A stretch of DNA of 64,000 nt from Minisyncoccota bacterium (GTDB taxonomy: Bacteria; Patescibacteriota; Minisyncoccia; Phycocordibacterales; UBA12079). A program made the position numbers and the translations under genes. This document shows positions 6,041-55,926 of this stretch, one piece after another; within the stretch, counting starts at the first letter, position 1, and each line of letters starts with the position of its first letter. Location of the stretch: NCBI GenBank assembly GCA_028689435.1, contig JAQTWD010000001.1:96-64095 (forward strand), read 5' to 3'. Under the pieces are notes generated by a model. That model was not told the DNA's origin. It ran no database searches and saw only the letters and a program-made list of their open reading frames with translations.

Positions 6041-6101
6041 CCCTATAATTTTCAATTCCCGCCTGCCAAAGCCTGGCACTAGCGGGCAGGTCCAATTTAT
6101 G

Positions 6102-9863: not shown

Positions 9864-9883
9864 CCTGCCTGCCGGCAGGCAGG
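9864..9883. repeat. 20-nt perfect palindrome CCTGCCTGCCGGCAGGCAGG
   Basis: Exact palindrome, one of at least 6 copies in the window. Confidence 0.8.
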
Positions 9884-10316: not shown

Positions 10317-10352
10317 GACCCCGTTCGCACAAGCGACACGGGGTCTGTTTTT
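10317..10352. terminator. intrinsic terminator shared by convergent genes
   Basis: GACCCCG-loop-CGGGGTC followed by TGTTTTTATTTTTTT. Overlaps the murC stop. Confidence 0.75.
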
Positions 10353-11646
10353 ATTTTTTTGAAAGAATTTTTTCGCCTACTTTGTAAACATCTCCCGCCC
10401 CCATTGTAATGATGACATCTTCTGGTCCAAAAATATCCGAATTAAATTCATTCATGATTTGATCGTATTCTATATAATAAGTTTCTCTATTATTTTTCTT
10501 TATCTTACTTGCAAGCATTTTGGAATTTATTTCTTTGTCTTCTTCTTCTCTGGCTGCATAAATTGGCAAAACAATTACACGGTCAACATCATTAAAACTT
10601 TTCGCAAAATCTTCTAAAAATATTTTTGTTCTACTATATAGATGTGGTTGAAAGATAACTGTGATTTTTTTACCTCTAAAAAATTCTCGCGCACCCTTCA
10701 ATGTCACTTGTACCTCTGTCGGATTGTGAGCATAGTCATCGTAAATCAAAGCACCTTTTTTTGTTTTGCCCTTTAACTCAAACCTTCTCCACGTACCTTC
10801 AAAATTGTTTAAAGATTTTATTGCATCGCTGTGATTGATACCCAAAATATTCGCAACGGCTAGACAAGCAAAAGCATTTTTTATATTGTGTTCTCCTGGT
10901 ATTTTCAACTTTAAACCAATCGCTCCTTGTGTAGTATAATCGACAACTTTTGAAACAGCCTTAACCAAAGCAGGGGCAACCCTCTTGTCATTTGGATCAC
11001 AAACTATATAGTCCTTTTCCCCCATTTTTGCCATCAGTTCTTTAAATGCTTTTTGGATATCAAAAATATTTTTAAAATAATCTAGATGATCCAAATCTAT
11101 ATTTGTAATCACAAGAATATTTGGTTTTAACTCTAAAAAAGATCTTTTATATTCGCACGCTTCTGTTACAAAATATTTGCTGTTTCCATGTATAAAGTTT
11201 GTTTTTTCTTTTTTTAAAAGACTTCCAACAATAACGGTTGGATCAAAATATGAATCTCGCAATACATCTGCCAACATTGCGGTAGTGGTTGTTTTTCCAT
11301 GTGTTCCAGATACAGCAATCGTATATTTATTTTCTGAAACACTCCCAAGAGAACGCGGATAAGATATTGCAGGGATTCCAATTTTTTTTGCCTTTAACAA
11401 TTCGGGATTATCTTTTGGAACAGCCGGAGAAAAAATAACCAAATCTGTACCAGATTCTATATTTTCTTCGTCGTGTTGAAATTTTATTACAGCTCCAAAT
11501 TTTTTTAATTCAGATGTAATCTCTGATTCTGCCAAATTTGAACCAGTAACCTTTTTTCCTTCTTTCAAAGCCATCCTTGCCATAGCAGAAACACCGATAC
11601 CCCCGATACCGATAAAGTGTATTTTTCTGGCATTTTTGAATTTCAT
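10351..11646 (-). CDS. murC: UDP-N-acetylmuramate--L-alanine ligase
   Basis: 431 aa. IHFIGIGGIGVSAMA, GTHGKTTTT P-loop, Mur ligase middle and C-terminal domains. Confidence 0.9.
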   Translation of the reverse strand: MKFKNARKIHFIGIGGIGVSAMARMALKEGKKVTGSNLAESEITSELKKFGAVIKFQHDEENIESGTDLVIFSPAVPKDNPELLKAKKIGIPAISYPRSLGSVSENKYTIAVSGTHGKTTTTAMLADVLRDSYFDPTVIVGSLLKKEKTNFIHGNSKYFVTEACEYKRSFLELKPNILVITNIDLDHLDYFKNIFDIQKAFKELMAKMGEKDYIVCDPNDKRVAPALVKAVSKVVDYTTQGAIGLKLKIPGEHNIKNAFACLAVANILGINHSDAIKSLNNFEGTWRRFELKGKTKKGALIYDDYAHNPTEVQVTLKGAREFFRGKKITVIFQPHLYSRTKIFLEDFAKSFNDVDRVIVLPIYAAREEEDKEINSKMLASKIKKNNRETYYIEYDQIMNEFNSDIFGPEDVIITMGAGDVYKVGEKILSKK

Positions 11647-11940
11647 CCAGTTAGAAGTAGCGAAGCTACTTCTAACGGGACAAGTCCCTAAAAAGTAACT
11701 GCTAATTTAATTTAATAATCTATTTTCCCGCTATCTCTAACGGGATTCATAACAAAAGTATTATAGCACAAGCTTGTGAGTAATAAGTAGTAAGGTGTAA
11801 GGTGTAAGGAGTAAGAATTAATGTGTAAATAAAAAAGCGAACTGAGTAATGAGAGTATCCAATCATCTTGTGGATACATGCCGTCATAGAGAAAACGTCT
11901 CTCTGTTAGCACTTTTATCACATCATCAATTCGCTTTTTG

Positions 11941-12188
11941 TGCGAATGCCAGGACTCGAACTCTGAAACACTCCATCGTGTTTCAGCCCGTCATTATCAG
12001 ATTAAATAGTTCCCAAGAACTGTTTAATCGCTCTAACTTTTTAAAGATAAAATAATGTATTAAGTGCGAATGCCAGGACTCGAACCTGGGACCTCGTCAT
12101 TATCAGTGACGCGCTCTAACCACCTGAGCTACACTCGCACTTAATACACTATTTTATTTTTAAAAAGAGCCACCTGAGCTACACTCGC
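11941..12188 (-). pseudogene. outer tRNA-Ile-like gene split in its D-loop by a 133-nt cassette carrying the intact tRNA-Ile
   Basis: cgctctaa (12029-12036) plus ccacctgagctacactcgc (12170-12188) together reproduce the D-arm of the intact gene. The 3' part keeps CTGATAATGACG and GAGTTCGAGTCCTGGCATTCGCA. Unrelated hairpins replace the anticodon-stem and T-stem 5' strands. Confidence 0.7.
12065..12138 (-). tRNA. tRNA-Ile (anticodon GAU)
   Basis: Reverse complement reads GCGAGTGTAGCTCAGGTGGTTAGAGCGCGTCACTGATAATGACGAGGTCCCAGGTTCGAGTCCTGGCATTCGCA, a canonical cloverleaf. Confidence 0.9.
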
Positions 12189-12460
12189 ATTTATATTTGA
12201 TTTTACCACAAACTCTATATGACGAGGTCCCCGAGTCATTATTAGGTGAGACAGTCTGGGAGACTGTCGAACCGCTCTAACCACCTGAGCTACACTCGCA
12301 CTTAATACACTATTTTATTTTTAAAAAGAGCCACCTGAGCTACACTCGCATTTATATTTGATTTTACCACGAACTCTATATGACGAGGTCCCCGAGTCAT
12401 TATTAGGTGAGACAGTCTGGGAGACTGTCGAACCGCTCTAACCACCTGAGCTACACTCGC
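12139..12460 (-). repeat. 2 x 161-nt tandem repeat built from tRNA-Ile fragments
   Basis: Unit 12139-12299 repeats at 12300-12460 with one mismatch. Each unit holds two copies of the tRNA-Ile 5' segment (ccacctgagctacactcgc) and a degenerate tRNA-like body with hairpin GACAGTCTCCCAGACTGTC. Confidence 0.8.
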
Positions 12461-12475
12461 ATATTTTATTTTTAA

Positions 12476-12550
12476 CGATACCTGCGGATTGTCATTATTA
12501 GATGAATGCGCTGGAGCATTCATCGCTCTAATCATTTAATATACACTCGC
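12476..12550 (-). pseudogene. degenerate tRNA-Ile-like copy
   Basis: Reverse complement reads GCGAGTGTATATTAAATGATTAGAGCG + hairpin ATGAATGCTCCAGCGCATTCAT + CTAATAATGAC... Confidence 0.55.
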
Positions 12551-12600
12551 ATTTATGAATATATGAATAGAAGAATACCAAAATATTCGTTCTGTTGCAA

Positions 12601-13262: not shown

Positions 13263-13469
13263 TAATAAAAAGCCACCTCTTGGCGACTTCTTTTTTTGCA
13301 TTTAAACGACAATATAATCTTTCTTTTGTTTCGTTTCATTCCCTAGTAACGGACATCTAGGGATACCGAGTATAGATTTAGGGATACAATACTATTGTCC
13401 CTATCACTTAAGAAGTGATAATCAACCGATTAAGTCTGTTTCCTCGTAAGAAAACAAACAGTTCATTTT

Positions 13470-15062
<1,593 letters not shown>

Positions 15063-15800: not shown

Positions 15801-15916
15801 CCTGCCTGCCGGCAGGCAGGGCTTCACTTCGTTCGTAAAGACGGTAGTGGGACGAACATCCGAAGATTGTTCGTCTTCGCGAGTGAAACGAAGCGACCTG
15901 CCTGCCGGCAGGCAGG
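15801..15916. repeat. two CCTGCCTGCCGGCAGGCAGG palindromes bracketing a CTCGCGAAGACG-type inverted repeat
   Basis: Exact 20-mers at 15801-15820 and 15897-15916. Between them, TTCGTTCGTAAAGACG...CGTCTTCGCGAGTGAAACGAAGCG. Confidence 0.75.
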
Positions 15917-21661: not shown

Positions 21662-22891
21662 GTGGATAATTCAAATATTACAAATAAACACAAAAAAGAG
21701 TGCCGAAAACAAGATTTATTCTCATTTAGAAATCTTTTAAAAGCATATTATCAATGCAGAAAAAGAAAAAGAAAGACGGTCAACGCATCAAAATTTGAAC
21801 TTGATTTTGAGAATGAATTATTAAGACTTGAAAAAGAACTAACGAACAAAACATACAAAATAGGTAATTCTATCTGTTTTGTTGTAACATATCCAACACC
21901 ACGAGAAATATTTGCGGCAGATTTTAAAGACAGAATTGTGCACCATCTTTTTATAAACCATATAGAAAAAATCTGGAATAAAAAATTTATTCATCATTCT
22001 TATGCTTGCAGAAAAAACAAAGGAGCACATGAAGCTATCAAAGATTTAAGAAAAACTCTCAGAAAAATAAGCTGTGATTTTTCCTGCCCTGTATATTATT
22101 TACAAGTTGATATTTCTGCATTTTTTATGTCTTTAAAAAAAGATATTCTTTTTGATTTAATTTGCAAACACTTAAAAAATCCTCAATTATTATGGCTAGC
22201 AAAACAAATTATTTTTCACGATCCAACCAAAGATTTTTATTGCAAAAGTGATAAAAAACTTTTTGAATTAATTCCAGACCATAAATCGCTTTTTAAAGTA
22301 CCTTGTAGACAAGGACTTCCTATTGGAAATCTTACATCTCAATTTTTTGCAAATATATATATGAATGAGCTAGACCAATTTGCCAAACACAATCTAAAAA
22401 TAAAATATTATTTTCGTTATGTTGATGATATTTTAATAATTGATGAAGATCCAAAACAACTAGAAAATTGGAAGAATCAAATAAATATTTTTCTCAAAAC
22501 AAAATTAGAAATTCACTTGCATCCAAAAAAATCAAAATTAAGATCTATTTATAAAGGAATAAATTTTGTCGGATTTATTATAAAACCAAATTATTTGATT
22601 ATTAGAAAAAGAACAATATCAAATTTAAAAAGAAAATTGTGGCAATTTAATCAATTTTTTGTAAAAAAAGATTATATTATTTCAAAAAATCAACTTGAAA
22701 AAATTTTGGCCGTTATCAATTCTTATTATGGACATTTTAAACATGCAAATACTTACAATCTTAAGAAATCTATTTATCAAAAACATTTTAAAAAATTAGA
22801 AAAATATATTGTACCCGCAAATGAAAATTTTGATTATTTTGAATTAAAATCTTCTCACACTACAAAAAATAGTTTTAGCAAAAATAAATAA
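21662..22891 (+). CDS. diversity-generating retroelement reverse transcriptase
   Basis: 409 aa. PREIFAADFKDRIVHHL, QGLPIGNLTSQFFANIY (DGR-type IGNxxSQ rather than group-II QGxxxSP), catalytic YVDD. TR and VR lie within 3.5 kb. Confidence 0.85.
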   Translation: MDNSNITNKHKKECRKQDLFSFRNLLKAYYQCRKRKRKTVNASKFELDFENELLRLEKELTNKTYKIGNSICFVVTYPTPREIFAADFKDRIVHHLFINHIEKIWNKKFIHHSYACRKNKGAHEAIKDLRKTLRKISCDFSCPVYYLQVDISAFFMSLKKDILFDLICKHLKNPQLLWLAKQIIFHDPTKDFYCKSDKKLFELIPDHKSLFKVPCRQGLPIGNLTSQFFANIYMNELDQFAKHNLKIKYYFRYVDDILIIDEDPKQLENWKNQINIFLKTKLEIHLHPKKSKLRSIYKGINFVGFIIKPNYLIIRKRTISNLKRKLWQFNQFFVKKDYIISKNQLEKILAVINSYYGHFKHANTYNLKKSIYQKHFKKLEKYIVPANENFDYFELKSSHTTKNSFSKNK

Positions 22892-22931
22892 AATATTTAT
22901 CAAGTTTATATTTATATAATTTTTAAAAAAA

Positions 22932-22967
22932 TGTTTAAAAATGTAGCGGTCGCGATTTTTTTAAACA
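22932..22967. repeat. hairpin TGTTTAAAAATGTAGC-GGTC-GCGATTTTTTTAAACA
   Basis: First of three near-identical hairpins partitioning the DGR locus (also 23614 and 24171). Confidence 0.7.
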
Positions 22968-23003
22968 AATCGGGAAATACCAGATTACAAAACATACTTA
23001 TTT

Positions 23004-23564
23004 TTAATCAATATCAAAAATCTCTTTTAACCACTTATCATTTTCTAGTTTATCAACAGTCATATAAAGCACATCTTTTCCAAGAAACAAATTAGATTTC
23101 ATTAATATTACTAGTTCTTCACAATCATAAGGAAATATCCAAACACTGTTTTGTAATTTAACAAAACCCAACCTGTCCAATGCAGATCTTAATATATGCC
23201 TTGTTCCTTTTCTACTTTCTTTTATATCAAACATCACCACTCGCCATTTTTTATCCCACCTTTTTGGTTTTTTTATTTCTAAATCTCCTATTTCATATTT
23301 AGCCAACTGTTCTTTCCCTTTTTCTGTTATGCGTAGAAATTTTTTTCCGTTTTTTTCCTCCCAAATCAAATTTCCTTTTTGAATAAGATTTTTTATTGAT
23401 TTATTTAGATAATTTTTTCTATTTCTGGTATCTTTTGAAAACTGTTTAAAAACTTGCAAAATATTTGGTGCCAAAACAGCAATACTGATTAGCCCAACTG
23501 TCGCAACTGTTGTCAAAACTATTTTTTGAATATTTAAATTATTTTTTACTTTTTGATTATTCAT
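23004..23564 (-). CDS. PaaX-like / Cas2-fold domain protein with N-terminal TM helix and winged-helix segment
   Basis: 186 aa. KRWDKKWRVVMFDIKESRKGTRHILRSALDRLGFVKLQNSVWIFP resembles the PaaX C-terminal (Cas2-like) domain. Paralog at 55360..55911. Confidence 0.55.
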   Translation of the reverse strand: MNNQKVKNNLNIQKIVLTTVATVGLISIAVLAPNILQVFKQFSKDTRNRKNYLNKSIKNLIQKGNLIWEEKNGKKFLRITEKGKEQLAKYEIGDLEIKKPKRWDKKWRVVMFDIKESRKGTRHILRSALDRLGFVKLQNSVWIFPYDCEELVILMKSNLFLGKDVLYMTVDKLENDKWLKEIFDID

Positions 23565-23613
23565 GATTATTATTGCGGTTACTATTATTACTATAATAAG
23601 TATACTAAAAAGG

Positions 23614-23649
23614 TGTTTAAAAATGTAGCGGTCGTTATTTTTTTAAACA
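23614..23649. repeat. hairpin TGTTTAAAAATGTAGC-GGTC-GTTATTTTTTTAAACA
   Basis: Second DGR-locus hairpin, upstream of the PaaX-like gene start. Confidence 0.7.
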
Positions 23650-23839
23650 ATATATTTTATATTTTATTATTATTTATTATATATACTTTATTTTAAACAC
23701 CTTATCTTTTATTTGTTTCCGAAAACATTCTATTTTAGATTTGATTTTAGACATTTTTTATAAATTTAAAATATTTTAATTTTCTTGAAAGAGCCGAGTT
23801 TTTATAAAATTTAGAGCATTTTTATTAAAATTATAATAA

Positions 23840-23976
23840 CCTAGCGAACACAACGAGAATCGTTCGCGTTAGTCTTAGCATTGTTGTTCGTGTTCCCGTT
23901 GTTCAAGTTCGTGTTCCAAGCATTCTGAGTAGCGTTAGATTGAGTAGTAGCAGACCAATAGTTGTTGGCGGCGTGG
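23840..23976 (-). repeat. DGR template repeat (TR)
   Basis: 137 nt aligning to 24875-25011. All 13 differences are plus-strand T in TR, which is A on the functional minus strand. The TR reading frame is rich in AAC/AAT codons. Confidence 0.9.
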
Positions 23977-24170
23977 ATTATTTCACTATTTGAAACATAA
24001 CCAAATTAATCTTTATCTAAACAAAGTATAATTTGAAAAAACTTTATACTTATTTAATTTATAAAATAAGTAAGTGAAATCGTGATTAAAATTTTAGCTC
24101 TCTTTTGATGTTCTCAAACAATCAAAACTCTGGCTCTTTCAAAAAAATTATTTTTTAGAATATATTATTA

Positions 24171-24206
24171 TGTTTAAAGATGCAGCAGTCGCAATTTTTT
24201 TAAACA
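24171..24206. repeat. hairpin TGTTTAAAGATGCAGCA-GTC-GCAATTTTTTAAACA
   Basis: Third DGR-locus hairpin, between TR and avd. Confidence 0.65.
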
Positions 24207-24461
24207 TCTTTAATTTAATTAAGCATTATTTAAAATTAAAAGTGTGACTATATTTATGTGGATTGCTTCGTGGTACTGCTTCAAATTTTTTCTCAAAAAA
24301 TTTGAAGTGCTCGCAAAGACGGGGGGATTCGTCGTCTTCGCGAGGAGTGGAACGAAGTGGAGCGACGAAGCGATCCACGTCGTTTGTGTTTTGGGTTCTG
24401 TGATTTGTTTGGTCATCTTTGGAATTTGTGTTTTGTGTTTTGTGTTTCTTCTTGAATTACT

Positions 24462-24824
24462 TCACTGCATTCGCAATGATGACGAAGTAGACCACTCTTT
24501 CCATTTGTTTAGTTGTCTACCTATTTCATCTATTTTTCTAGTCAAAAATTCAAAACCTTTTTGACCCAAAATTTTTAAATCAAAACAAATTCTAATATAG
24601 ATTTTTAATTTTTCTAAAATATTTTGTGCATTTTCAAGGTACATTGTTTTATTTTTAGCAGAATTAGCTGTAACAATCAAATCTAACAAATCAATACTCG
24701 TATTTTTTATTTTCTCTCCTATTGAGTGTCTATGCATTCTTGGAAAATTATTCGCTCTTTTGTGAATTTCCAAAGTCAAATCATACGTAGATTGAAAAAT
24801 CGGTAAATGCTGATAACGAGCCAT
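24462..24824 (-). CDS. avd: DGR accessory variability determinant (Avd; four-helix-bundle, 23S-IVS-protein family)
   Basis: 120 aa. NFPRMHRHSIGEKIKNTSIDLLDLIV parallels the Bordetella phage bAvd IPRKHGVAREMF... region. Located between VR and TR as in canonical DGRs. Confidence 0.75.
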   Translation of the reverse strand: MARYQHLPIFQSTYDLTLEIHKRANNFPRMHRHSIGEKIKNTSIDLLDLIVTANSAKNKTMYLENAQNILEKLKIYIRICFDLKILGQKGFEFLTRKIDEIGRQLNKWKEWSTSSSLRMQ

Positions 24825-24874
24825 ATTTAAAATAGATAAATAATTTAAATAATAAAATTACAAAATAATAATCA

Positions 24875-25011
24875 CCTAGCGAACACAACGAGAATCGTTC
24901 GCGTTAGTCTTAGCACTGGCGTTCGTGTACCCGTTGTACAAGGGCGTGTACCAAGCATTCTGAGTAGCGCTAGATAGAGTAGCAGCAGACCAATAGGTGT
25001 AGGCGGCGTGG
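24875..25011 (-). repeat. DGR variable repeat (VR)
   Basis: 3' end of the target gene. The first 41 nt (including the stop codon) are identical to TR; 13 substitutions follow, only at TR-adenine positions. Confidence 0.9.
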
Positions 25012-26204
25012 GGAAGATTCCCCCAAGAACCATCAATATAAGCCTGCATCAATTCTTTTTGATAAGGGGCACGCCAATTACCGTCCCCTAACAATTTACA
25101 ACCTGTAATGTTTGGGGTACTTGTTGCTGTAACACACTGACAGGCATCGTCACCTGTTGCAGAACAAGCCCCAGGGTTTGCCCAAGTCCCCGGCTCCCAA
25201 CAATTGTTTACCCAAAACCAAGTATGATTTGCTCCTCCATCCAACCAATCAGACCAAATCAAACCTGTGCTATTATCTTGATAACAAATATTTCCTGAAC
25301 AAGCGGTGGAATCGCCTGTTTTACAATAATTGTTCGCAGAGGTACATTGTGTCCAAGATGCAGAAAAAGTATCTGTTGGCATAGTGGTATTGTTGTTGTA
25401 ATCGTCCACACCACCCTTGACCTGAGTATAAAAAGCATAATCAAGAACACTCGTTCCAGCAGTTCCATTTTTTTGATTAACCACAGAAAACATACTCCTA
25501 TTCTCCAAATATTCTAGTCTTTCCAAAATATTTCCATCAGCATTCGCGGTTATTGTAGTTGAGCTATACCCTGTTTGAGAAATTGCGTCTAAATGACCGG
25601 CTCTTTCATCTGTCCATGTCGTCGTTGATAGTGCCGTATCTGATGAAGGAACTTTGTCCCACAGTCTTTTAAACCAACCAAAAATAGTATCTGTGCTTGT
25701 CGCAACAGAAGAACTACCAATATTATAGGCAATACTGCCTTCAACCGGAGTTGTTGATGATGTTGAGCTGGAAACAAGAAATCTTAAATCTGAATTAATA
25801 AAATCTAGATATCCAGCTCTCGTATCTGTCCATGTTGTTGTTGAAAGAGCAGTATCAGAAGATGCTCTTGATGAAATAGTAGTATTTAGATTATCTACAA
25901 TCAATTTACCAACACTATCAACGGTGGTTAATTCGGAAACACTTTTATTCCAAATACCAGAAACCAAACCTGCTATTGAATCACTAATTGCCTCCAAACT
26001 ATCTGTTGTTCTGTCAAAAGTATTATTAACATCTTTGGCTGTCATTTCCAAAATTGTCCACATGGTAGAAGCTGGGCTGGAAGAGGGGGTCAGAGACCCT
26101 GCTCTTACAACAGTCGAAACGGCAAAAGAAGATACCAAAACAATAGCCAAGACTTTTGAAAGATTTTGTATGCCCATTTTTATAAATCTATTCTTATTTT
26201 TCAT
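24876..26204 (-). CDS. DGR target protein: secreted/anchored, C-terminal DUF1566 / C-type-lectin (FGE-like) fold
   Basis: 442 aa. N-terminal signal/TM, internal duplication SSDTALSTTTWTD(T/E)RAG(Y/H)LD, C-terminus NWRAPYQKEL...NDSRCVR carrying the VR. Confidence 0.8.
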   Translation of the reverse strand: MKNKNRFIKMGIQNLSKVLAIVLVSSFAVSTVVRAGSLTPSSSPASTMWTILEMTAKDVNNTFDRTTDSLEAISDSIAGLVSGIWNKSVSELTTVDSVGKLIVDNLNTTISSRASSDTALSTTTWTDTRAGYLDFINSDLRFLVSSSTSSTTPVEGSIAYNIGSSSVATSTDTIFGWFKRLWDKVPSSDTALSTTTWTDERAGHLDAISQTGYSSTTITANADGNILERLEYLENRSMFSVVNQKNGTAGTSVLDYAFYTQVKGGVDDYNNNTTMPTDTFSASWTQCTSANNYCKTGDSTACSGNICYQDNSTGLIWSDWLDGGANHTWFWVNNCWEPGTWANPGACSATGDDACQCVTATSTPNITGCKLLGDGNWRAPYQKELMQAYIDGSWGNLPHAAYTYWSAATLSSATQNAWYTPLYNGYTNASAKTNANDSRCVR

Positions 26205-29527: not shown

Positions 29528-30286
29528 TTATTTTTCAACTAAAATAATAACTTCTATCTGACTAGTTTGGTCTTTCAAAAGTCCTGGCCAAGTAAACACG
29601 ACATTTTCTATCGCATTTTTAGACATTTTTTCAATGATTGTTTGAGAAACAGCCACAGCGTTGCCTTCTTTATCGGTCAAAATTCCTGTGATTTTTATAT
29701 TCTCAATCGTCCTAACTGTTTCATTTTTTATATTTGCTTCCAGCCTTGTATTTCCATCTTTTTCAGTTAATTCTTTATTCTGAACAACAACAGCTGGCTG
29801 TTCATAATCTGTTTTTACCCACTCTGGATTTTTCAAAAATTCAAACAAAGGCGAACGGCCAGGCTCTCTTTCCTGAGTTATAATTGTTCTTTCAAAAATT
29901 GCTGTAACTGCTCTCGGAGGAATATAGGCCTTTCCCAATCTTTCTGCAATCAAAATATTATCTTTGTCATAAATTTTGAAAGAGTAGGGAACATCATGTG
30001 CTTCTGTTTTAAAATTTGGGTTTTCCACCAAAGCGACAACATTATAAATTCCGTCTTTAACCTTGAAAAATCTACTCCAAAGTATTATTGGATCAAGCGC
30101 TTGAAATTCACAAATTTTTGGACACACACCACCGCAGTCTATGTCTTGTTCGTCTTGATTTTGAATTCCATCTGTACAAGTTGGGGCTGTGTAAATAAAA
30201 ATGTAATAAAACAAAGACACTATCAACAAAAACAGTGATAAGAAAAATGAAAAATATATTGTTCTTCTTTTTGATGCCCAAGACAT
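29528..30286 (-). CDS. hypothetical membrane-anchored protein
   Basis: 252 aa. N-terminal TM helix and a Cys-rich segment CTDGIQNQDEQDIDCGGVCPKIC. Confidence 0.55.
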   Translation of the reverse strand: MSWASKRRTIYFSFFLSLFLLIVSLFYYIFIYTAPTCTDGIQNQDEQDIDCGGVCPKICEFQALDPIILWSRFFKVKDGIYNVVALVENPNFKTEAHDVPYSFKIYDKDNILIAERLGKAYIPPRAVTAIFERTIITQEREPGRSPLFEFLKNPEWVKTDYEQPAVVVQNKELTEKDGNTRLEANIKNETVRTIENIKITGILTDKEGNAVAVSQTIIEKMSKNAIENVVFTWPGLLKDQTSQIEVIILVEK

Positions 30287-30563
30287 AATGAAAATTCAAA
30301 AGTTAAAAATCAAAAGTCAAAATTAAGACTTAAAATTAAAATTATAAAGATGGTTAAATGATAACAAAAAAACATCACTTTTGTAAGTGACAGTAGAAAC
30401 TAAGCTTATAGCTGATAGCGACGACGACAGAATCGTCATCTTTGCGAACGAAGTGAAGCAATCCAGAAGAATTTTGCCTGCAATGTCGTTGTTTTTCTTT
30501 AAGAAAATAAGCAGAGATTAACCCAGCACTCAAGTTTTTACCAAAAACTTGAGTGCTGGGCGT

Positions 30564-30880
30564 ACTGCCGTGTGCGGAACTTGCAAATTTAAGTTTTTAT
30601 AGAAATAAAAAAATTGAATACCTAATGTTGGCGCTTACCTACTTTCCCCATAAAAGAGTATCATCGGTTCTAGAAGGCTTAACTGCCGTGTGCGGAATGA
30701 GAACGGGTGTACCCCTTCCGACGAAGCACCAACATTAGATATTCAATTTTCAATTTTTTTTATTTCTATAAAAACACAATTATTTGCAAGGGTGTCGTAT
30801 TGTTTTCATCTTACAAAATATTTAGTTTATACAAACTAACTATTTTGTAAGATGAAAGCCCTTCCGACGAAGCACCAACA
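30564..30880 (-). pseudogene. outer, truncated 5S-like copy interrupted by the palindromic cassette that carries the intact 5S gene
   Basis: actgccgtgtgcggaa (30564-30579), gggtgt (30790-30795) and cccttccgacgaagcaccaaca (30859-30880) duplicate consecutive segments of the intact 5S 5' half. They are separated by hairpins and by the cassette. Confidence 0.65.
30626..30734 (-). rRNA. rrf: 5S rRNA
   Basis: Reverse complement reads TGTTGGTGCTTCGTCGGAAGGGGTACACCCGTTCTCATTCCGCACACGGCAGTTAAGCC...GGGAAAGTAGGTAAGCGCCAACA. Helix I pairs. Confidence 0.85.
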
Positions 30881-31101
30881 CAAAGTGTTTTAATTTTTGT
30901 TCTGTATGTAATATTTTAAAGTATGAGGAATTTTCACTTCTATTAAAGAAGTGAAAATTCCTCAAATGGTCGGGGAATTCGATCTAACTCAGTTTGCTCT
31001 ATCTATGTTTCTCTTTTGGAAAAACATAGCCGGATTCATCCTTTGGGGATGTACCGGTAACAAAAAGAATTCTTTCGCAATCAAAAACCCCGTTTCAAAT
31101 T

Positions 31102-31182
31102 TGGAGCAAGGGGCTGGATTTGAACCAGCGACAACACAACCTACTCAGGCTATGAGCTCTGTCCTGACTGAGCTACCCTTGC
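31102..31182 (-). tRNA. tRNA-like element in the 23S-5S spacer with a non-canonical anticodon arm (identity undetermined)
   Basis: Reverse complement reads GCAAGGG-TA-GCTCAGTCAGGACAGAGC-T-CATAGCCTGAGTAGGTTGTG-TTGTC-GCTGGTTCAAATCCAGC-CCCTTGC-T-CCA. Acceptor, D-arm, T-arm and an encoded CCA are perfect, but the anticodon arm is a 7-8 bp stem with a 4-6 nt loop. Confidence 0.55.
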
Positions 31183-31474
31183 CCAATATATATGAATAAC
31201 AAGAAATTGTTTTTAAAATAAGAATCGTGTCCTTTGAAATTCCTAATAAGAAATATCTCGATGCATTAGTACTCCTCGGCTGAACACATTACTGTGCTTA
31301 CACCTAGAGCCTATCACCTGATCATCTCTCAGGGATCTTAAACGATTCCTAATCTTGAAGTTGGCTTCCCTCTTAGATGCTTTCAGAGGTTATCCATTCC
31401 CAACATAGCTACCCAGCGGTGCTCCTGGCGGAACAGCTGGTACACCAGAGGTTAGTTCACTCCGGTCCTCTCGT

Positions 31475-32333
31475 CGTGTTTAAAAAATTTCATTCTTTTC
31501 GAAATTCGAAACTATGAATTCAAAATTTTTTATCTTCCCCTATTTCTAGGAGCACAGACTATATCTTCACCCTTTCCTCATGAACAGGACTGGGGTGGTG
31601 GCGTGTTACATACAGAGACTGTCATTTTCACCGAAATGATTCAGCACATCCATACGTCTGTCATAAAAATGGTTTTATTTTTATAGACAAGTCGTTACGG
31701 GGTCAAACCCAAAATTCTATACAAATCTTTTTTATTTAAAGTACTTCGACTGGCATAATTTTCTTTTTTGATTATTAATACCAAATCAACTATTCTGCGT
31801 ATTTGTTGTTTAGATAAATTGTTTATATTAACAGAGCTTAAAATTTCACAAGCTTCTATAAGAGCTTTAGTCTGTTTAGACTTGAACTTTATAAAAGGTT
31901 GTAATAATAAAAGAATTTCTTTTATTGTTTTAAATCCATTAATACGCAATTCGGACATTCCATCGTTTCTACGAGAAATGTATCCCACTCCAAACACTTT
32001 ACGCATCCACAAAAGTGGTTTTTCATGACGAGTATCTTGATACAGACAAATTGTTGCCATAAATCTTACGCCCTTTTTTGTATCAGAACGTTTTTTGATT
32101 TGTAACATCAAACTGCCATCACCATCAAGAAAACCCGCGATGTACGCTAAATTATTTGTATTGATTTTGAATCGACTTCCCACGGTATTGCCTTAAAGAG
32201 GATTATGGTCCTCAAGCATATTATACCACACAAGAACCGAGAGTGTGTATAATACTCAAACCACAACCATATGAAGGTTTCACCGTTATAGCCACTTTGT
32301 CATCACACATCTCTGTGTGAAGTAGCAAAATTT
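31475..32333 (-). mobile_element. group-I intron in the sarcin-ricin loop (between E. coli positions ~2656 and 2657) with a LAGLIDADG ORF
   Basis: Exon junction CCTAGT|...|ACGAGAGGACCGG. The 5' exon ends in U and the intron ends in G. J8/7-like GAAGATATAGTCTG is present. Confidence 0.75.
31695..32183 (-). CDS. LAGLIDADG homing endonuclease (single-motif type)
   Basis: 162 aa. LAYIAGFLDGDGSLML. GTG start inside the conserved 17-mer CAATACCGTGGGAAGTC. Confidence 0.8.
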   Translation of the reverse strand: MGSRFKINTNNLAYIAGFLDGDGSLMLQIKKRSDTKKGVRFMATICLYQDTRHEKPLLWMRKVFGVGYISRRNDGMSELRINGFKTIKEILLLLQPFIKFKSKQTKALIEACEILSSVNINNLSKQQIRRIVDLVLIIKKENYASRSTLNKKDLYRILGLTP

Positions 32334-32384
32334 ACTAGGAGCAAATCTTCTCAAGAATCAACGCCTGCAGCAGATAGGAGACCA

Positions 32385-32419
<35 letters not shown>

Positions 32420-32489
32420 ACTTTTTAATTGGCGAACAGCCAAACCCTTGGGACCTTCTCCAGCCCCAGGATAAGTTGAGCCGACATCG

Positions 32490-33341
32490 CAATGTCGTCT
32501 TTGAACCGCGAGATTCAAAGTTTTAATCCATTGTTACCAATGGTTTGGACTATATATTCACCTTTTTTTTAAAAAAGTTAAGGTGTTGGCGTTTTAGCAC
32601 TTCGTATTTGAAGCACTCTGTCCGTCAACCGACGGACAAGTCTCTACGGGGTCATAACTCAATTTGTATTTCATTGAAGGAATAATGTGTGGTTCAATAA
32701 TAGAATTCAATTTTTCAATACTTTCTTTCAAAAATCTAATCCTATAATATTTTTTATCTTTATTTAAACGAGCCTTTAAGCCCATTTTTCTCAAAGAATG
32801 CAATAATATTTTTTGTTCCTTCATAGAAAATTGTTGTGTGTTTAAATACACATCATTTTTTCTAGATTTACTTCCATCATCCATAAACCAAACCGCTAAA
32901 ATAATTGAATCTAATTCCAAATTATTTGGTATGGTTTTACTTTTATTTTTGTAAAAGTTTTTCATTAAATCAGTTATTTCTGGATGTTGTTTTGTAAAAA
33001 ATCTATAAGCTTTTCTGTCATTTTCTCCACTACTTCCTTTTGGAGGAGAAACACAAATATTTTTTAATATAGAATATTTCCAATCAACATATTCTTTGGC
33101 TTTGATAGAATGATTTATTTCTAAAAATGCATCTTTCCTGTTAGGTGCAATCCTAACATATCCATCACCAAGAATAGATCCCATTATTACTGATTTTTGT
33201 TGTTGAGTTAGACTTCCCACGGTATTGTCCATAATCATTACATTATAGCTGATTATATTATGGAGTCCACCGTTATAAGCCAATATTTTTTGTAGGATAT
33301 TTCTATCCTAGGCACCCCGATGTAAGTTGTAACTTAAGTTA
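32490..33341 (-). mobile_element. group-I intron at 23S position ~2500 (peptidyl-transferase centre) with a LAGLIDADG ORF
   Basis: Exon junction GGCACCT|...|CGATGTCGGCTC. The 5' exon ends in U and the intron ends in G. J8/7-like GAATATATAGTCC is present. Confidence 0.8.
32594..33283 (-). CDS. LAGLIDADG homing endonuclease (double-motif type)
   Basis: 229 aa in the track. Motifs IMGSILGDGY and AVWFMDDGS. The true start may be the GTG at 33220, inside the same 17-mer seen in the other intron. Confidence 0.8.
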   Translation of the reverse strand: MAYNGGLHNIISYNVMIMDNTVGSLTQQQKSVIMGSILGDGYVRIAPNRKDAFLEINHSIKAKEYVDWKYSILKNICVSPPKGSSGENDRKAYRFFTKQHPEITDLMKNFYKNKSKTIPNNLELDSIILAVWFMDDGSKSRKNDVYLNTQQFSMKEQKILLHSLRKMGLKARLNKDKKYYRIRFLKESIEKLNSIIEPHIIPSMKYKLSYDPVETCPSVDGQSASNTKC

Positions 33342-33911
33342 AGGTGCCGAACATCGCCGTCGATATGAACTCTTAGGCGATACCAGCCTGTTATCCCCAG
33401 GGTAGCTTTTATCCGTTAATCTTCACCCGCGTCTAATGCGAGGTGTCGGTTCACTATGCTCTGCTTTCGCACTTGTTCGGCATGCACGCCTCACAATCAA
33501 GCCAGCTTGTGCCATTACACTATCAGCACGGTTTCCATTCGCGCTTAGCTGACCTTAATAGGCTCCTCCGTTACTTTTTAGGAGGATAGCGCCCCACTAA
33601 AACTACCTGCCAGATACTGTCTCCCGCCGTTTTTTCCGTCGAGATTAGAATGTACATTTTTAAAGAGTGGTATTTCACTGATGACTCCAGACAATCCAAA
33701 AACTGCCCTTCAAAGTCTCCCACCTATGCTACGCATCAAAAACATACACCCAATACCAAGCTATAGTAAAGCTCCTGGGGTCTTTTCGTCTAGCTGCAGG
33801 TAACCGGCATCTTCACCGGTATTGTATTTTCACCGAGCTGTTCCCCGAGACAGTATCCCACTCATTACGCCATTCGTGCACGTCTACAATTACTAGACAA
33901 GGAATTTCGCT

Positions 33912-34290
33912 TGATTTTGTTACTATCCAATTTAAAACTGGATGAATGAATCATTTCTGTTCATTTCTACATATCGCTATGCAGTCCGGACTATAATTTC
34001 TAAGTTTAAAACTTAGTCTAGCGTTTAGTCTCTGAGGATTCTTGCGTATTTTGCAAGTCTTTCCTGCTGATTTTCCGCACTGATCAGATTTTTACTTTTT
34101 AGAAAAGTACTGTCAGATTCTCGGATTTTCCAGCATATGGCTAGATGTTTTATGACGTTTTATAAAATAAATTTTATAAAACAGGCAACATTTATTCCTT
34201 AAATTACTTTGTACACCAATTTTTTATCTTGTTTATCTTAGTATCCACAACAGTCCTAGTCTTTGTACCTCCTTATAAAAAAGAGGCACA
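33912..34290 (-). mobile_element. ORF-less group-I-like intron at 23S position ~1931
   Basis: Exon junction CCTAAGGT|...|AGCGAAATTCC. J8/7-P7-like GAAATTATAGTCCGGAC is present. The last intron base reads A, not the expected G. Confidence 0.6.
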
Positions 34291-34325
<35 letters not shown>

Positions 34326-34344
34326 CAGGGCTTATATCAGACAG

Positions 34345-34485
34345 CACGCTCCTCGCTTCGCTCGGAGCAAGTAGTAAGTAAAAGGCAAAAGTAATAAGTA
34401 AAAAATTTGCTTCGCAAATTTTTTCGTTTCTTACTACTTACACCTTACTCCTTAGCACTTGCGTTCCAAACGCAGTGAGGAACGT
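34345..34485. repeat. AGTAAGTA-type palindromic insertion in 23S
   Basis: ACGCTCCTCGCTTCGCTCGGAGCAAGTAGTAAGTAA...AAAAAATTTGCTTCGCAAATTTTTT...CTTAGCACTTGCGTTCCAAACGCAGTGAGGAACGT, absent from the recalled E. coli sequence at this helix. Confidence 0.7.
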
Positions 34486-34600
34486 ACCACCAATATTTAA
34501 CCTTCTGGCATTGGTCAGGCGTCACCCCCTATACATCCTCTTGCGAGTTCGCAGGGAGCTGTGTTTTTGATAAACAGTTGGCAGGATTACTTTCGCTGCG

Positions 34601-34815
34601 GCCGTCGCATCTCGCTACGCTCGATACTCAAATTTTTAATTTTTAATTTTTAATTTTCAAACAATTTTTAATGAAATAATTTTTAAACACGACGACAAAA
34701 TTTGCTTTGCAAATTTTGTGTTTAAAAATTTAAGACATTTTAAAATTTGATATTGTTTAGAAATTAAAAATTAAAAATTAAAAATTCGGCATCAAATGTA
34801 ATGAGATGCGACGGC
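34601..34815. repeat. 215-nt AT-rich palindromic insertion in 23S
   Basis: Arms GCCGTCGCATCTC / GAGATGCGACGGC enclose (AAATTTTTAATTTTT)n arms and a central AAAATTTGCTTTGCAAATTTT hairpin. Confidence 0.7.
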
Positions 34816-35352
34816 AAGCCTTATTCCGAAGTTACGGCTGCTATTTTGCCGAGTTCCTTGGGGAATTATCACTCGTTCGCCTTGGTCTTCTCGACCTGAC
34901 TACCTGTGTCGGTTTACGGTACGGGTTCTTTATACTTAACCTTAGAAGCTTTTCTTGGAAGGCTCTTCGTAAGAATTTTCCAACCCGAGGGAAGAAATTT
35001 AATCTATTTACGAAATTCGACATTAAAGTCAGTTTCCCGGATTTTCCTAAGAAACAATTCTTAAAATAAAATACACAAATCCAATAATGTGCTCTTACTT
35101 GTGTCCTCCGTCACTCCATCGAAATACAAAGAAGTTACGGAATATTAACCGTATGTCCATCAGATCCGGTTTTCACCATCTCCTTAGGCCCGACTAACCC
35201 TTCGCTGATCACCATTGCGAAGGAAACCTTAGTCTTTCGGCGTGCAGGGATCTCACCTGCATTGCGGTTACTTGTGCCAACATTCTCGCTTCTGTACGCT
35301 CCACCATGGCTTACGCCTTTGGCTTCATTGCAGAACAGAATGCTCTCCTACC

Positions 35353-35483
35353 GCTTGTGCAAAGCACAAGCGAGTCATAAGTGATAAGTACTAAGTAATA
35401 AGTAAAAAATTTGCTTCGCAAATTTTTTCGTTTCTTACTACTTAAACCTTACTACTTTTAACTCGCTTGTGCTTTGCACAAGC
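35353..35483. repeat. AGTAAGTA-type palindromic insertion in 23S
   Basis: GCTTGTGCAAAGCACAAGC + ...AGTAATAAGTAAAAAATTTGCTTCGCAAATTTTTTCGTTTCTTACTACTT... + GCTTGTGCTTTGCACAAGC. Confidence 0.7.
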
Positions 35484-36100
35484 CCTAACCTTCGGTACCA
35501 TACTTAGCCCCGATTATTTGCGGCGCAATATCTCTTGATGAGTGAGCTGTTACGCTATCTTTAAAGGATGGCTGCTTCTAAGCCAACCTCCTCATTGTCT
35601 GAGAAATTTCACCTCCTTAAGTGCACTTAGTATGAATTTTGGGACCTTAGATGTAGGTCTGGGCTGTTTCCCTTTTGACCAATGGAGCTTAGCCCCCACA
35701 GTCTAACTGCCTAGAAATTGACTACTGGTATTCGGAGTTTGATAGGATTGACGAAGTTTCCCCCTATTCAATCCTTCCAGTGCTCTACCCCCAGTAGGTA
35801 ATCTAGACGCTAACCCTAAAGCTATTTCGGAGAGAACCAGCTATTACCAAGTTCGATTAGCTTTTCACTACTTGCCACAAGTCATCCGATAGAGTTGAAC
35901 GACTAACCGGTTCGGGCCTCCTTCCGTCTTTCGACGAAATTCACCCTGCTCATGGCAAGCTCACTTGGCTTCGGGTCCTAAACATACAACACAATTTTTT
36001 CGCGCTATTCACACTCGCTTTCGCTGTGCCTCCTTGCTAACGCAATTAGGCTGCTGCATATTTAGACTCGTTGGCTCATTCTTCAATAGGCACGCGGTCA

Positions 36101-36248
36101 CCGTCGCATCTTGCTATGCAAGATGCGACGAAATTAAAAATTTTAAATTATAAATTTGACCAAACAAAAAATAAATTTTTTGTTTTAATTTATAATTTAA
36201 AATTTATCATTTATAATTCCGTCGTTCTTACGCAGTAAGATACGACGG
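36101..36248. repeat. multi-hairpin palindromic insertion in 23S
   Basis: CCGTCGCATCTTGC-TATG-CAAGATGCGACG + an AT-rich palindrome + CGTCGTTCTTACGCAGTAAGATACGACGG. Confidence 0.65.
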
Positions 36249-36299
36249 CTCCCACTCCTTGTAGGCATATGGTTTCAGGTCTATTTCACTCCCCTCTCC

Positions 36300-36342
<43 letters not shown>

Positions 36343-36555
36343 ATCTCTAAAAGTATTTAGCCTTACCGGTTAGTTCCGGCAGATTCCCCCAAGCCATTCG
36401 TGTCTTGAGGTACTCAGGAACAACAATAAAAAAGATAAATTGTTTTCGTTTACGGGACTATTACCCTCTAGGGTCCTGCTTCCCAGCAGATTCAACTAAC
36501 AAAATATTTTTTGACTTTTTTCATTACAAGAATGACACTGTTGTCCTACAACCCC

Positions 36556-36702
36556 AGTCGCTCCTCGCTATGCTCGGAGCAAGTAGTAAGTAATAAGGTA
36601 TAAATAATAAGTAAAAAATTTGCTTCGCAAATTTTTTCGTTTCTTACTACTTATACCTTACTCCTTAGCACTTGCGTTCCGAACGCAGTGAGGAACGACT
36701 GG
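36556..36702. repeat. AGTAAGTA-type palindromic insertion in 23S (near-duplicate of 34345..34485)
   Basis: CAGTCGCTCCTCGCTATGCTCGGAGCAAGTAGTAAGTAATAAGG...CTTAGCACTTGCGTTCCGAACGCAGTGAGGAACGACTGG. Confidence 0.7.
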
Positions 36703-37335
36703 TTTGGGCTCTTTCGCTTTCGCTCGCCACTACTTACGAAATATTATCTAAATAAATAGACATTGTTTTCTTTTCCTCTGGGTACTGAGATGTTTCACTT
36801 CCCCAGGTGCACTCCGAGTATCCTTTATAGATACAAGGTAATCTGTGTTCAACAGATTGGGTTCCCCCATTCGGAAATCTCCGGATCACAGGTTGCTAGT
36901 CACCTACCCGAAGCTTATCGCAGACATGCCACGTCCTTCATCGCCTTTTAGAGTCAAGGCATCCACCATACGCCCTTATGAATTTCCTATTAGGAAATTC
37001 AAACAACGCAATTCTTATTTTAATACAATTTTTTTACCTACAGATCTAAAAATTTAATTTTTAATTAAACTTAAAGACCCATTGATTGACTTGTCTCTGG
37101 TATAAGACAAATCACTTGTTATTCATTTTTCAACGAACATTTCATTCAGCCATTTAATCTTACAGTCTCGGCGAAGTTTTGGATAAATCCAAAACTTCGC
37201 TGAAACAATAAATTTAAAAAAAATAAAACCGCTCTTTTTGTTTTAAGCGGTATCTACCCAAGATAGCATCTAAAAGACGCCTACATCACCCGCTTATTTA
37301 AATTAGTTTTAGCTACTCTATTTAGCACGGTTACT

Positions 37336-38643: not shown

Positions 38644-38663
38644 CCTGCCTGCCGGCAGGCAGG
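38644..38663. repeat. CCTGCCTGCCGGCAGGCAGG palindrome
   Basis: Exact 20-mer. Confidence 0.8.
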
Positions 38664-48704: not shown

Positions 48705-48724
48705 CCTGCCTGCCGGTAGGCAGG
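48705..48724. repeat. CCTGCCTGCCGGTAGGCAGG palindrome (1 mismatch)
   Basis: Member of the 20-nt palindrome family, inside the rpsJ-rplC spacer. Confidence 0.75.
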
Positions 48725-55911: not shown

Positions 55912-55926
55912 ACTATATATATTAAC

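Follow-up and report, generated by a model that had tools for sequence, protein, structure and literature searches.

Nested 5S rRNA and tRNA genes in Campbellbacteria-like Patescibacteria: an intact 5S gene inside an older copy of itself

Why does the only intact 5S rRNA gene of a bacterial genome region lie between long inverted repeats, with pieces of another 5S gene on both sides? We examined this question in a 64,000-nt stretch of a Minisyncoccota bacterium (GenBank assembly GCA_028689435.1, contig JAQTWD010000001.1, positions 96 to 64,095), referred to below as the window. The window is AT-rich (~33% GC) and gene-dense, with nearly every gene on the minus strand, which is also the RNA sense of the 5S locus. 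An earlier note, made from the letters alone, had placed the intact 5S (30626–30734) between inverted-repeat arms inside a second 5S copy, and all the elements that it listed were found at their coordinates. The analysis confirmed that the nested 5S is real and beyond chance. A complete 5S gene with a leader/trailer helix of ~45 bp occupies loop C of an older 5S gene, and of the copies the innermost alone is intact; later, a hairpin was gained in loop B of the outer copy and its 3′ half was lost. This design recurs at two or three levels in Campbellbacteria-like Patescibacteria and extends to tRNA-Ile and tRNA-Gln genes. The arms pair and covary, the nests recur at differing sites and in differing genes, deletion derivatives exist, and arms are shared among lineages.

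RNA genes were called with Rfam and ARAGORN. The covariance-model check that the earlier note had proposed placed a single intact 5S at 30626–30733, with a score of 66.2 bits against a gathering score of 38 and full coverage of model positions 1–120; this inner copy is the one intact 5S gene in the window. Reading along the minus strand, the locus consists of outer positions 1–22, a c and a hairpin, acaatacg, outer positions 25–30, the 5′ arm, the intact 5S, the 3′ arm, outer positions 38–53, and acg followed by a perfect hairpin. As the earlier note had claimed, the three outer pieces are colinear with 5S, and 44 of their 44 bases are the same as in the inner gene. The longest exact 5S matches in the 160-nt flanks were 22 and 16 nt, compared with a maximum of 13 nt in 2000 shuffles of the flanks. 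The outer fragments alone gave no match to Rfam RF00001. The segment of the outer copy that the cassette (arm, gene, arm) replaces is exactly the proposed tgagaac, or gttctca in the RNA sense (5S positions 31–37; helix III tip and loop C). Two details of the earlier description needed correction: the outer gggtgt segment at 30790–30795 is present (acaccc, 5S positions 25–30), with position numbering that had been off by one, and the hairpin at 30804–30857, described as perfect, has 24 of 25 pairs. The hairpin at 30522–30560 is indeed perfect over 18 bp.

Features of the window and their coordinates; strand is given where the analysis assigned one.
Feature	Coordinates	Strand	Remarks
Conserved 18-bp hairpin in the tRNA-5S spacer, upstream of the nest	30924..30964	-	inverted repeat I6; same hairpin in L003
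Outer 5S positions 1–22	30859..30880	-	exact 22-nt direct repeat of 30713–30734
Loop B hairpin of the outer copy, 24/25 bp	30804..30857	-	inverted repeat I2; replaces 5S positions 23–24
Outer 5S positions 25–30, acaccc	30790..30795	-	read from sequence
Cassette 5′ arm, 56 nt	30735..30790	-	inverted repeats I1/I3/I4; pairs with 30580–30625
Inner intact 5S rRNA gene, 109 nt	30626..30734	-	presumed functional; Rfam RF00001
Cassette 3′ arm, 46 nt	30580..30625	-	pairs with the 5′ arm
Outer 5S positions 38–53	30564..30579	-	exact 16-nt direct repeat of 30682–30697
Perfect 18-bp hairpin after the truncated outer copy	30522..30560	-	inverted repeat I7
Palindromic repeat cluster remnant	30400..30520	-	marks deletion of outer positions 54–109
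AT-rich hairpin and T-run, likely operon terminator	30366..30395	-	kept in L015 right after the outer 5S 3′ end
Further decorated pseudo-tRNA-Ile copies, upstream of the tRNA-Ile nest	12189..12553	-	include an older degenerate copy common to L027
Outer tRNA-Ile positions 1–19, to D-loop	12170..12188	-	exact repeat of inner gene
tRNA-Ile cassette 5′ arm, 31 nt	12139..12169	-	pairs with 12037–12063
Inner intact tRNA-Ile(GAU)	12064..12138	-	ARAGORN; Rfam 70.7 bits
tRNA-Ile cassette 3′ arm, 27 nt	12037..12063	-	pairs with 12139–12169
Outer tRNA-Ile, position 20 to 3′ end	11940..12036	-	exact 22-nt and 12-nt repeats of inner gene
23S rRNA, bacterial	31245–36989	-	last exon end near 31245
Odd tRNA	31102–31182	-	between 23S and 5S
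16S rRNA	13466–15061		Rfam/ARAGORN
tRNA-Gln	3701–3772		plain, without a nest in the window
Dispersed hairpin repeat hpA and adjacent long hairpin	51340–51510		
Dispersed hairpin repeats, CCTGCCTGCCGGCAGGCAGG family	9864–9883; 15801–15820; 15897–15916; 38644–38663; 48705–48724		
DGR reverse transcriptase	21662–22891	+	
DGR template repeat	23827–23976		
DGR bAvd-like accessory protein	24462–24824	-	
DGR variable repeat	24862–25011		
DGR target protein	24876–26204	-	Lcl_C/C-type-lectin-like C-terminus

Related loci, denoted here by numbers with the prefix L, were found as syntenic contigs through homologues of the 252-aa protein encoded just downstream of the 5S (order 23S-tRNA-5S-protein-RodA), and 18 additional loci came from metagenome contigs scanned for the 5S 3′ end. 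The 5S nest was present in at least five independently assembled related lineages. The outer 5S of the L003 group (five assemblies) is complete and consists of positions 1–21, a hairpin, 26–35, an arm, the inner 5S, an arm, 38–72, a 40-nt insertion, 80–109 and a terminator; that of the L015 group is complete as well, with an insertion of ~210 nt at position 59/60. L005 (NCBI JAHIOZ010000060.1) has three levels, a 5S in a 5S in a 5S, with both cassettes at the same loop C site, and its innermost 5S carries a compensated helix I change (C9-G to T-A). L010 contains a degenerate multi-level nest. Half-forms, with the order arm, 5S, arm, partial 3′ copy, arm, were found in L012, L037 and L024. The search of related genomes suggested by the earlier note also recovered the un-nested state, as a plain 5S with a short leader/trailer helix in the more distant L013, L009 and L040, and a nest at another site in L019. 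The L019 5S is 86% identical to that of the window, and its cassette lies at ~56/57 (E. coli numbering), a different site that indicates an independent event. In every locus Rfam passed the inner copy only, and the innermost copy was intact everywhere. L034, which has a homologue of the flanking protein, had no 5S upstream of it, so that synteny is lost there. When the junction pattern ATTTGCRAGTTCCNCACACGG was scanned in genome contigs, only the L005 contig and one chance match in a coding region (L006) were found.

The recurrence of whole nests also bears on the quality of the assemblies. A nest of 507 nt differs by 0–1 mismatch among five assemblies from ENA and JGI, and the 699-nt nest of L015 is identical in L020, on contigs of 371 and 369 kb, respectively. 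Mis-assembly, which the earlier note had named as a way in which its reading could fail, is thus not supported.

The earlier note had further pointed to a nested tRNA-Ile 18 kb away with the same architecture, and to a recurrent process acting on structured-RNA genes. Both claims held, with nests at differing sites and in tRNA-Gln as well. The arms of the tRNA-Ile cassette in the window form a duplex of 27 pairs (dG -24.9, z -9.5), and the outer copy has, within 11940–12036, hairpins that take the place of the variable region and of the anticodon stem's 5′ strand. The locus includes a 161-nt tandem duplication (12112–12433, 99% identity), and its pseudo-tRNA copies contain, at 12219–12231 and 12380–12392, an exact 13-nt inverted copy of tRNA-Ile positions 37–49 that pairs as a hairpin with the retained atgac. 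This exact inverted copy indicates that fold-back or template-switch copying occurs at these loci.

By its proteins, the window organism belongs to Patescibacteria (Candidatus Campbellbacteria); its MurC homologue (10351–11646) is 96% identical to the MurC of Candidatus Campbellbacteria RIFCSPLOWO2_01_FULL_34. These proteins ruled out a plastid origin, which had been considered because of AT-richness and a weak Plastid-psbA match (36.7 bits, threshold 54.3). The MurC protein of L027 is likewise 96% identical to that of the window, yet its tRNA-Ile is nested at a different site: in this Campbellbacteria relative (L026/L027) the cassette lies in the anticodon loop, the outer copy comprises positions 1–38, and the arms of 84 and 69 nt are unrelated to those of the window. 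In L030, which has the same MurC protein as L027, the tRNA-Ile nest is without its 3′ arm and the 3′ part of the outer copy, a loss for which deletion between 32-nt direct repeats is the simplest explanation. The tRNA-Gln gene of L026 (9009–9250, minus strand) is arranged as an outer 5′ part with hairpins followed by arm, tRNA and arm, and L027 contains a decorated partial 3′ copy (8258–8500, plus strand); the MurC proteins of L026 and L027 are identical, and their tRNA-Gln arrangements and genomic contexts differ.

The insertion sites observed are thus 5S loop C 35/38 (about 37/40 in E. coli numbering by our own alignment), 5S ~56/57, the tRNA-Ile D-loop in the window and the tRNA-Ile anticodon loop in L027. 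The end of the outer 5′ part and the start of the outer 3′ part fall within 0–6 nt of each other in four independent nests, and such matching breakpoints point to a single insertion-type event rather than to two independent duplications.

A 16-nt motif, TTTTAAAAATAAAATA, is common to the 5′ arm of the tRNA-Ile cassette (window 12150–12165 and 12311–12326) and the 5′ arm of the L015 5S cassette (6187–6202). An upstream tRNA-Ile copy has a similar string in its native 5′ flank (12462–12475). The sharing could be due to chance in AT-rich DNA (E = 0.002–0.003) or to a common leader signal.

The two 5S arms in the window form a duplex of 44 base pairs with a dG of -40.4 kcal/mol (z -12.4 in relation to shuffles), and the minimum-free-energy fold of the cassette is a single long stem with the 5S on top. 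The arms pair in every cassette (23–52 pairs, z -7 to -13). When six cassettes were aligned, 12 of the 16 arm pairs adjoining the 5S covaried, pairing being kept by changes on both sides. The arms extend helix I of the 5S, and the corresponding place in un-nested relatives is taken by a shorter leader/trailer helix, so that the arms are read as a processing and insulating helix. From these comparisons, a leader/trailer processing helix is probably a better description of them than generic inverted repeats, and cleavage of the helix by RNase III would be expected.

The arms also suggested how cassettes may travel. The 5′ arm of the window and that of the innermost cassette of L005 are identical at 45 of 47 aligned bases, and the 3′ arms at 40 of 44; two pair changes are compensated (T-A to C-G, G-C to A-T). 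Identity is 51–78% in all other arm pairs, and shuffled arms have a mean of 53% and a maximum of 64%. For comparison, the window and L005 are 65% identical in the adjacent spacer, 93% at the 23S 3′ end and 55% in the neighbouring protein, and their remaining non-coding DNA can no longer be aligned. The closer relatives L015 and L003, with 99.4% and 97.1% identity at the 23S 3′ end, carry arms unlike those of the window. Near-identity with a distant lineage and difference in closer ones points to horizontal or recombinational spread, which the sequence comparisons suggest for the cassette arms. The inner 5S of the window is 100% identical to those of L015 and L010, and 5S sequence types in general do not track the 23S-based distances; as 176 nt of 23S were compared, this mismatch is only suggestive.

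We next consider the outer shells. The loop B hairpin of the window matches the same-site hairpin in L015, L020 and L022 at 87%, and L003, L005 and L010 also have hairpins at this position of the outer 5S. At the site of outer positions 25–30, relatives have the longer acacccgttc(t/c). The perfect hairpin that follows the truncated outer copy is single-copy in the window and across the fetched loci. The earlier note had taken this hairpin to replace the 3′ half of the outer 5S. The 3′ half is missing from the window, but by a secondary deletion: positions 54–109 are retained in L015 and L003, and the remnant at 30400–30520 is homologous to the L015 insertion at 59/60, which implies that the window lost outer positions 54–109 afterwards. 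Within this remnant, BLAST matched 30433–30465 with the insertion of L015 and with copies dispersed in L003 and L015. Compared with the conspecific L015, L016 has a 140-nt deletion that removes outer positions 1–22, the hairpin and most of the 5′ arm. As outer pieces have been lost by deletion in strain variants, the shells are dispensable. A scan of 30250–31300 for terminators (GC-based) and promoters gave nothing over background and did not call the hairpin at 30366–30395.

Dispersed hairpin repeats have entered the shells. The 41-nt hpA has 100% identical copies at window 51347–51387, at two places of the outer 5S in L015, in L003 and in the T-loop of the pseudo-tRNA-Gln in L027; with at least four loci in four genomes it behaves as a dispersed palindromic repeat of the kind of repetitive extragenic palindromes (REP) or bacterial interspersed mosaic elements (BIME), and within the nests such repeats make up parts of the outer shells, the remnant at 30433–30465 included, and not the cassette arms. 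Copies of hpA and of the CCTGCCTGCCGGCAGGCAGG family lie inside the outer shells of nested 5S and tRNA genes of relatives. When hairpins and arms were considered as repeat families within the window, this was rejected for the arms, hp1 and hp2; the downstream remnant and the hpA/D8/D1 families do repeat.

The explanation that we prefer, with a probability of about 0.6, is a self-nested structural-RNA gene in which the inner copy is functional, the arms serve processing, and the shells are relics of ‘disrupt-and-rescue’ self-insertion. The whole nest would be transcribed as the tail of the 23S-tRNA-5S operon. The arm helix would let the inner 5S fold apart from the 5S fragments around it and would provide a double-stranded site for processing of the RNase III type that releases the pre-5S, leaving the outer pieces as by-products. 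On the DNA level, an arm-gene-arm unit would insert into an exposed loop of a resident single-copy gene, an event presumably survivable only because the insert brings a working copy. If each new insertion hits the then-intact inner gene, the result would be a Russian doll whose central copy is the youngest. Cassettes may move among lineages by recombination, with the conserved gene halves as homology, and old shells would decay by insertion of hairpins and repeats and by deletion between direct repeats. It is also conceivable, and we put this forward tentatively, that the nests are protein-less selfish cassettes or the outcome of a novel mutational pathway, such that a helix-flanked copy of an RNA gene (5S, tRNA-Ile or tRNA-Gln) disrupts and rescues the resident, spreads by recombination and piles up, resembling a natural ‘cleave-and-rescue’ drive.

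Several points weigh against the disrupt-and-rescue explanation. We found no nuclease, recombinase or transposase associated with the cassettes, no terminal motif shared among the arms, and no target-site duplication; ‘insertion’ is therefore a formal description and not a demonstrated mechanism. Arm processing and the role of RNase III are matters that we infer, and arm covariation could in part stem from independent births of perfectly paired arms instead of selection. The window's own arrangement, with B-type arms, is without a second independent assembly, and the sole contig found with the window's own protein sequence ends short of the nest. The outer pieces are, moreover, near-identical to their own inner genes (44/44, 97/98 and 94/96). 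The inner genes of L003 and L015 differ at four sites (12, 19, 67 and 98), and each outer copy matches its own inner gene, despite the homologous insertions that the shells of L003 and L015 share. Such near-identity requires concerted evolution (gene conversion), or frequent re-creation or a very recent origin; it could also reflect selection on the outer copies. On another count, too, a once-functional expanded outer 5S fits as well as ‘disrupt and rescue’. Decay was seen in the L010 outer piece (16/22 identity), and the middle copy of L005 is identical to its own innermost copy at 93 of 106 positions and to the window type at 102 of 106.

The possibility exists that the nests arose by a local mutational process without any mobile cassette. 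Replication template switching, or ‘insertion with long target duplication’, at RNA genes that are strongly structured and strongly transcribed would duplicate the leader with the 5′ part and the 3′ part with the trailer; the arms would then be paralogues of the gene's own complementary leader and trailer, and the nests mutational debris in palindrome-rich genomes. Half-nests of the expected kinds exist, both for 5S (L012, L037, L024) and as a partial 5′ copy, arm and tRNA (L030, L026). The tandem duplication in the tRNA-Ile locus of the window, the inverted copy of positions 37–49 as direct evidence of fold-back copying, the resemblance of the L003 outer flanks to its own inner arms, and the published precedent of partial rRNA gene duplication with a short insert (PMC3457768) are all in line with such a process. 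What makes us regard it as rather doubtful is that two independent duplications would not match breakpoints, and four nests abut within 0–6 nt; in addition, at least two half-nests, L016 and L030, can be shown to derive by deletion from full nests of the same species, and the near-identity of arms between the window and L005 over a large phylogenetic distance is left unexplained. A different proposal concerns the outer copies themselves, which could be functional, now or when formed, as a 5S ‘in pieces’, the hairpins and the arm helix being expansion segments or intervening sequences and each precursor giving 2–3 5S or one giant 5S. L003 and L015 have complete outer copies, which differ from the inner ones by 1–2 mismatches and follow lineage-specific substitutions; the one in L003 also keeps its own leader/trailer pairing and terminator, and the insertions are at loop B, loop C and helix IV, where functional expansion segments of bacterial 5S cluster (PMC7812874). 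The outer copies are, however, truncated or deleted in the window, L005 (outermost), L010 (16/22) and L016 with no sign of compensation, L015 has a ~210-nt cluster of dispersed intergenic-type repeats at 59/60, inside helix II, and in the tRNA nests hairpins take the place of one anticodon-stem strand and one T-stem strand, an arrangement that is not compatible with function as a tRNA. Functional outer copies are thus improbable.

An RNA-mediated origin, in which a processed arm-gene-arm precursor is ligated into a nicked exposed loop of the same RNA, reverse-transcribed and recombined into the gene, would account for cassette boundaries at the base of the precursor helix, which define a discrete RNA species, and for insertion into exposed loops, namely loops B and C of 5S and the D-loop and anticodon loop of tRNA (PMC7812874). 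An active diversity-generating retroelement (DGR) 8 kb away also encodes a reverse transcriptase. This enzyme has its own template, however, and its adenine-specific mutagenesis has left no trace in the nests: inner and outer copies differ at 0–2 positions, not specifically at adenines, and the DGR enzyme was rejected as the driver of the nests on this ground. Since no RNA ligase or nuclease is implicated and the multi-step pathway is without bacterial precedent, we consider this origin very improbable. Least credible of all, to a degree that is practically negligible, is an assembly artefact or chance similarity. Short-read contigs do often break at the 5S locus, as in L001 and L002, which begin 36 nt before the downstream gene, but identical nests occur in five plus three independent assemblies, including contigs of 369–371 kb, and the repeats involved (16–35 nt direct, ~45 nt inverted) would be shorter than typical reads. 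Shuffled sequences never exceeded matches of 13 nt.

Known types of mobile or intervening element did not account for the nests. A transposon or miniature inverted-repeat transposable element (MITE) was rejected since the arms occur nowhere else in the window or in any fetched locus (orthologous nests aside), have no common terminal repeat and enclose no open reading frame (ORF), and since duplication at the junctions is 0 nt (tRNA-Ile D-loop) or a few bases are lost (ca or gttctca in 5S). Integrase-mediated insertion was set aside because the cassettes measure 130–230 bp, without an ORF and without a common core at the junctions; for site-specific recombination with a shared core, GTTC can be forced at the 5S junctions and fails for the tRNA-Ile junctions. 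A permissive Rfam scan of 30300–31300 found no match to an intron family, which excluded a group I/II intron or twintron. A bulge-helix-bulge motif, as in archaeal-type introns or split and permuted tRNAs, was not seen at the junctions by eye, where an asymmetric internal loop (9 nt against 8 nt) stands in place of the 3-nt bulges and 4-bp helix of that motif, no formal search for the motif being made; the genome is, moreover, bacterial. IMG/VR had no matches to the 5S or tRNA-Ile patterns, and a phage collection gave no BLAST match; a phage or viral carrier was ruled out on this basis.

A search of the literature for nested, Russian-doll or self-inserted tRNA or 5S genes returned no description, and recursive self-nesting appears to be undescribed. 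Tsurumaki et al. (2024; PMC11270868) found none with an insertion of at least 100 bp among 645 5S genes of the candidate phyla radiation (CPR); extraction based on cmsearch, as used there, would return the inner copy of a nest. The CPR rRNA insertions in that report have counterparts in the window, namely LAGLIDADG insertions in 23S and ~100-nt palindromic insertions in 16S/23S. According to Stepanov and Fox (2021; PMC7812874), 5S expansion segments cluster in loop B, helix III and loop C, with loop C 34–37 and positions 52–53 as the least obstructed sites; long unbranched helices occur at loop C 34–37 in several clostridial strains, pseudogene remnants carry the same insertions, and horizontal transfer by homologous recombination was proposed. 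Their survey discarded sequences ‘with internal duplication’. The 5S of Halococcus morrhuae has a 108-nt insertion (PMC7530397). Lim, Furuta and Kobayashi (2012; PMC3457768) described partial rRNA gene duplications and proposed ‘insertion with long target duplication’. None of PMC11270868, PMC7812874 and PMC3457768 describes a gene nested in itself.

The nests resemble 5S expansion segments in their long helical insertions, in the preferred site at loop C 34–37 and in the pseudogene remnants, and the sites agree: the cassette lies in loop C, the hairpin in loop B, and the L019 cassette at ~56/57. In the nests, however, the tip of the helix bears a complete second 5S, the arrangement is recursive to three levels and includes tRNA genes, and the host (outer) copy is dispensable and decaying. 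A functional expanded 5S has a complete host core that works as 5S; the outer copy of the window lacks positions 54–109, and an intact inner copy is always present. Like the intervening sequences (IVS) of bacterial 23S/16S rRNA, which RNase III removes, the nests have a stem-forming insertion at an rRNA loop, here with the 44-bp arm duplex as an extended stem at loop C, that is presumably cut from the transcript without religation. An IVS, by contrast, contains no copy of its host gene, and the host rRNA still functions in fragmented form; the truncated outer 5S argues against function of the host copy in the window. The model of ‘insertion with long target duplication’ (PMC3457768), with duplicated segments flanking a short insert, describes half-nests well, but complementary arms, matching breakpoints and recursion are not predicted by it. 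Integrative elements in tRNA genes likewise preserve function through a replacement sequence brought by the insert, with the displaced fragment as a direct repeat; the nests differ in having no integrase, cargo or att core, and in being ~130–230 bp with a whole gene and fragments on both sides.

Selfish palindromic elements are known inside genes, such as the Rickettsia palindromic elements, and REP/BIME and MITE-like repeats are related cases. The dispersed hairpin repeats of this genome, some of them in RNA genes or outer shells, are similar to these, but the cassette arms are unique, form no repeat family and enclose a gene. Twintrons are nested by repeated insertion into a previous insert, and in the synthetic Cleave-and-Rescue (ClvR) drive one element both disrupts an essential gene and provides the rescue copy. 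Both serve as analogies only; the nests gave no Rfam intron match, and no nuclease is known for them.

A structural RNA gene recursively nested in itself adds an architecture to the ribosomal-gene oddities of CPR/Patescibacteria. The 5S genes of this group are not insertion-free as reported, and annotation by covariance models reports the inner copy and hides the shell. The nests with one, two and three levels, together with half-resolved forms and strain polymorphisms, form a natural series for studying interruption and rescue of essential single-copy RNA genes, which bears on the evolution of leader/trailer helices and on homology-only horizontal spread of short protein-less cassettes. Nests break short-read assemblies, and can mislead rRNA/tRNA annotation and copy-number estimates in metagenome-assembled genomes (MAGs). 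Two other samples gave the Logan contigs L001 and L002, both of which begin exactly 36 nt upstream of the gene for the 252-aa protein; short-read assemblies seem to break at the repeat-rich 5S locus, and nests may as a result be under-represented in MAGs.

The remaining observations concern the neighbourhood of the nests. Insertions that encode two LAGLIDADG homing endonucleases (31695–32183 and 32594–33283) split the 23S gene, and its terminal ~176 nt (31245–31420) lie ~2 kb apart from the main 23S body. A family of imperfect palindromes of ~100 nt (core AAGTAAAAAATTTGCTTCGCAAATTTTTTCGTTTCTTACT...) has three copies inside 23S, one inside 16S and one intergenic (5945–6047, 13867–13969, 34382–34484, 35386–35488 and 36595–36697), which resemble small insertions of IVS or MITE type in rRNA genes. 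The tRNA between 23S and 5S has an 8-nt anticodon loop, with the ARAGORN anticodon gagt in the window and aagt in L015 (5731–5811). Its orthologue in L003 (9114–9187) was called as a 74-nt tRNA-Ser(GCU), in which the long variable arm was absent on reading the sequence; this spacer tRNA could be an unusual decoder or a decaying gene.

The DGR mentioned above is complete (21662–26204) and lies 4–9 kb from the 5S nest. Of the 15 mismatches between its template and variable repeats, 14 are at template adenines (coding strand). Two ORFs with a PaaX_M (Cas2-like) domain, at 23004–23564 and 55360–55932, are paralogous, their DNA being 73% identical over 300 nt, and one of them lies between the DGR reverse transcriptase and the template repeat.

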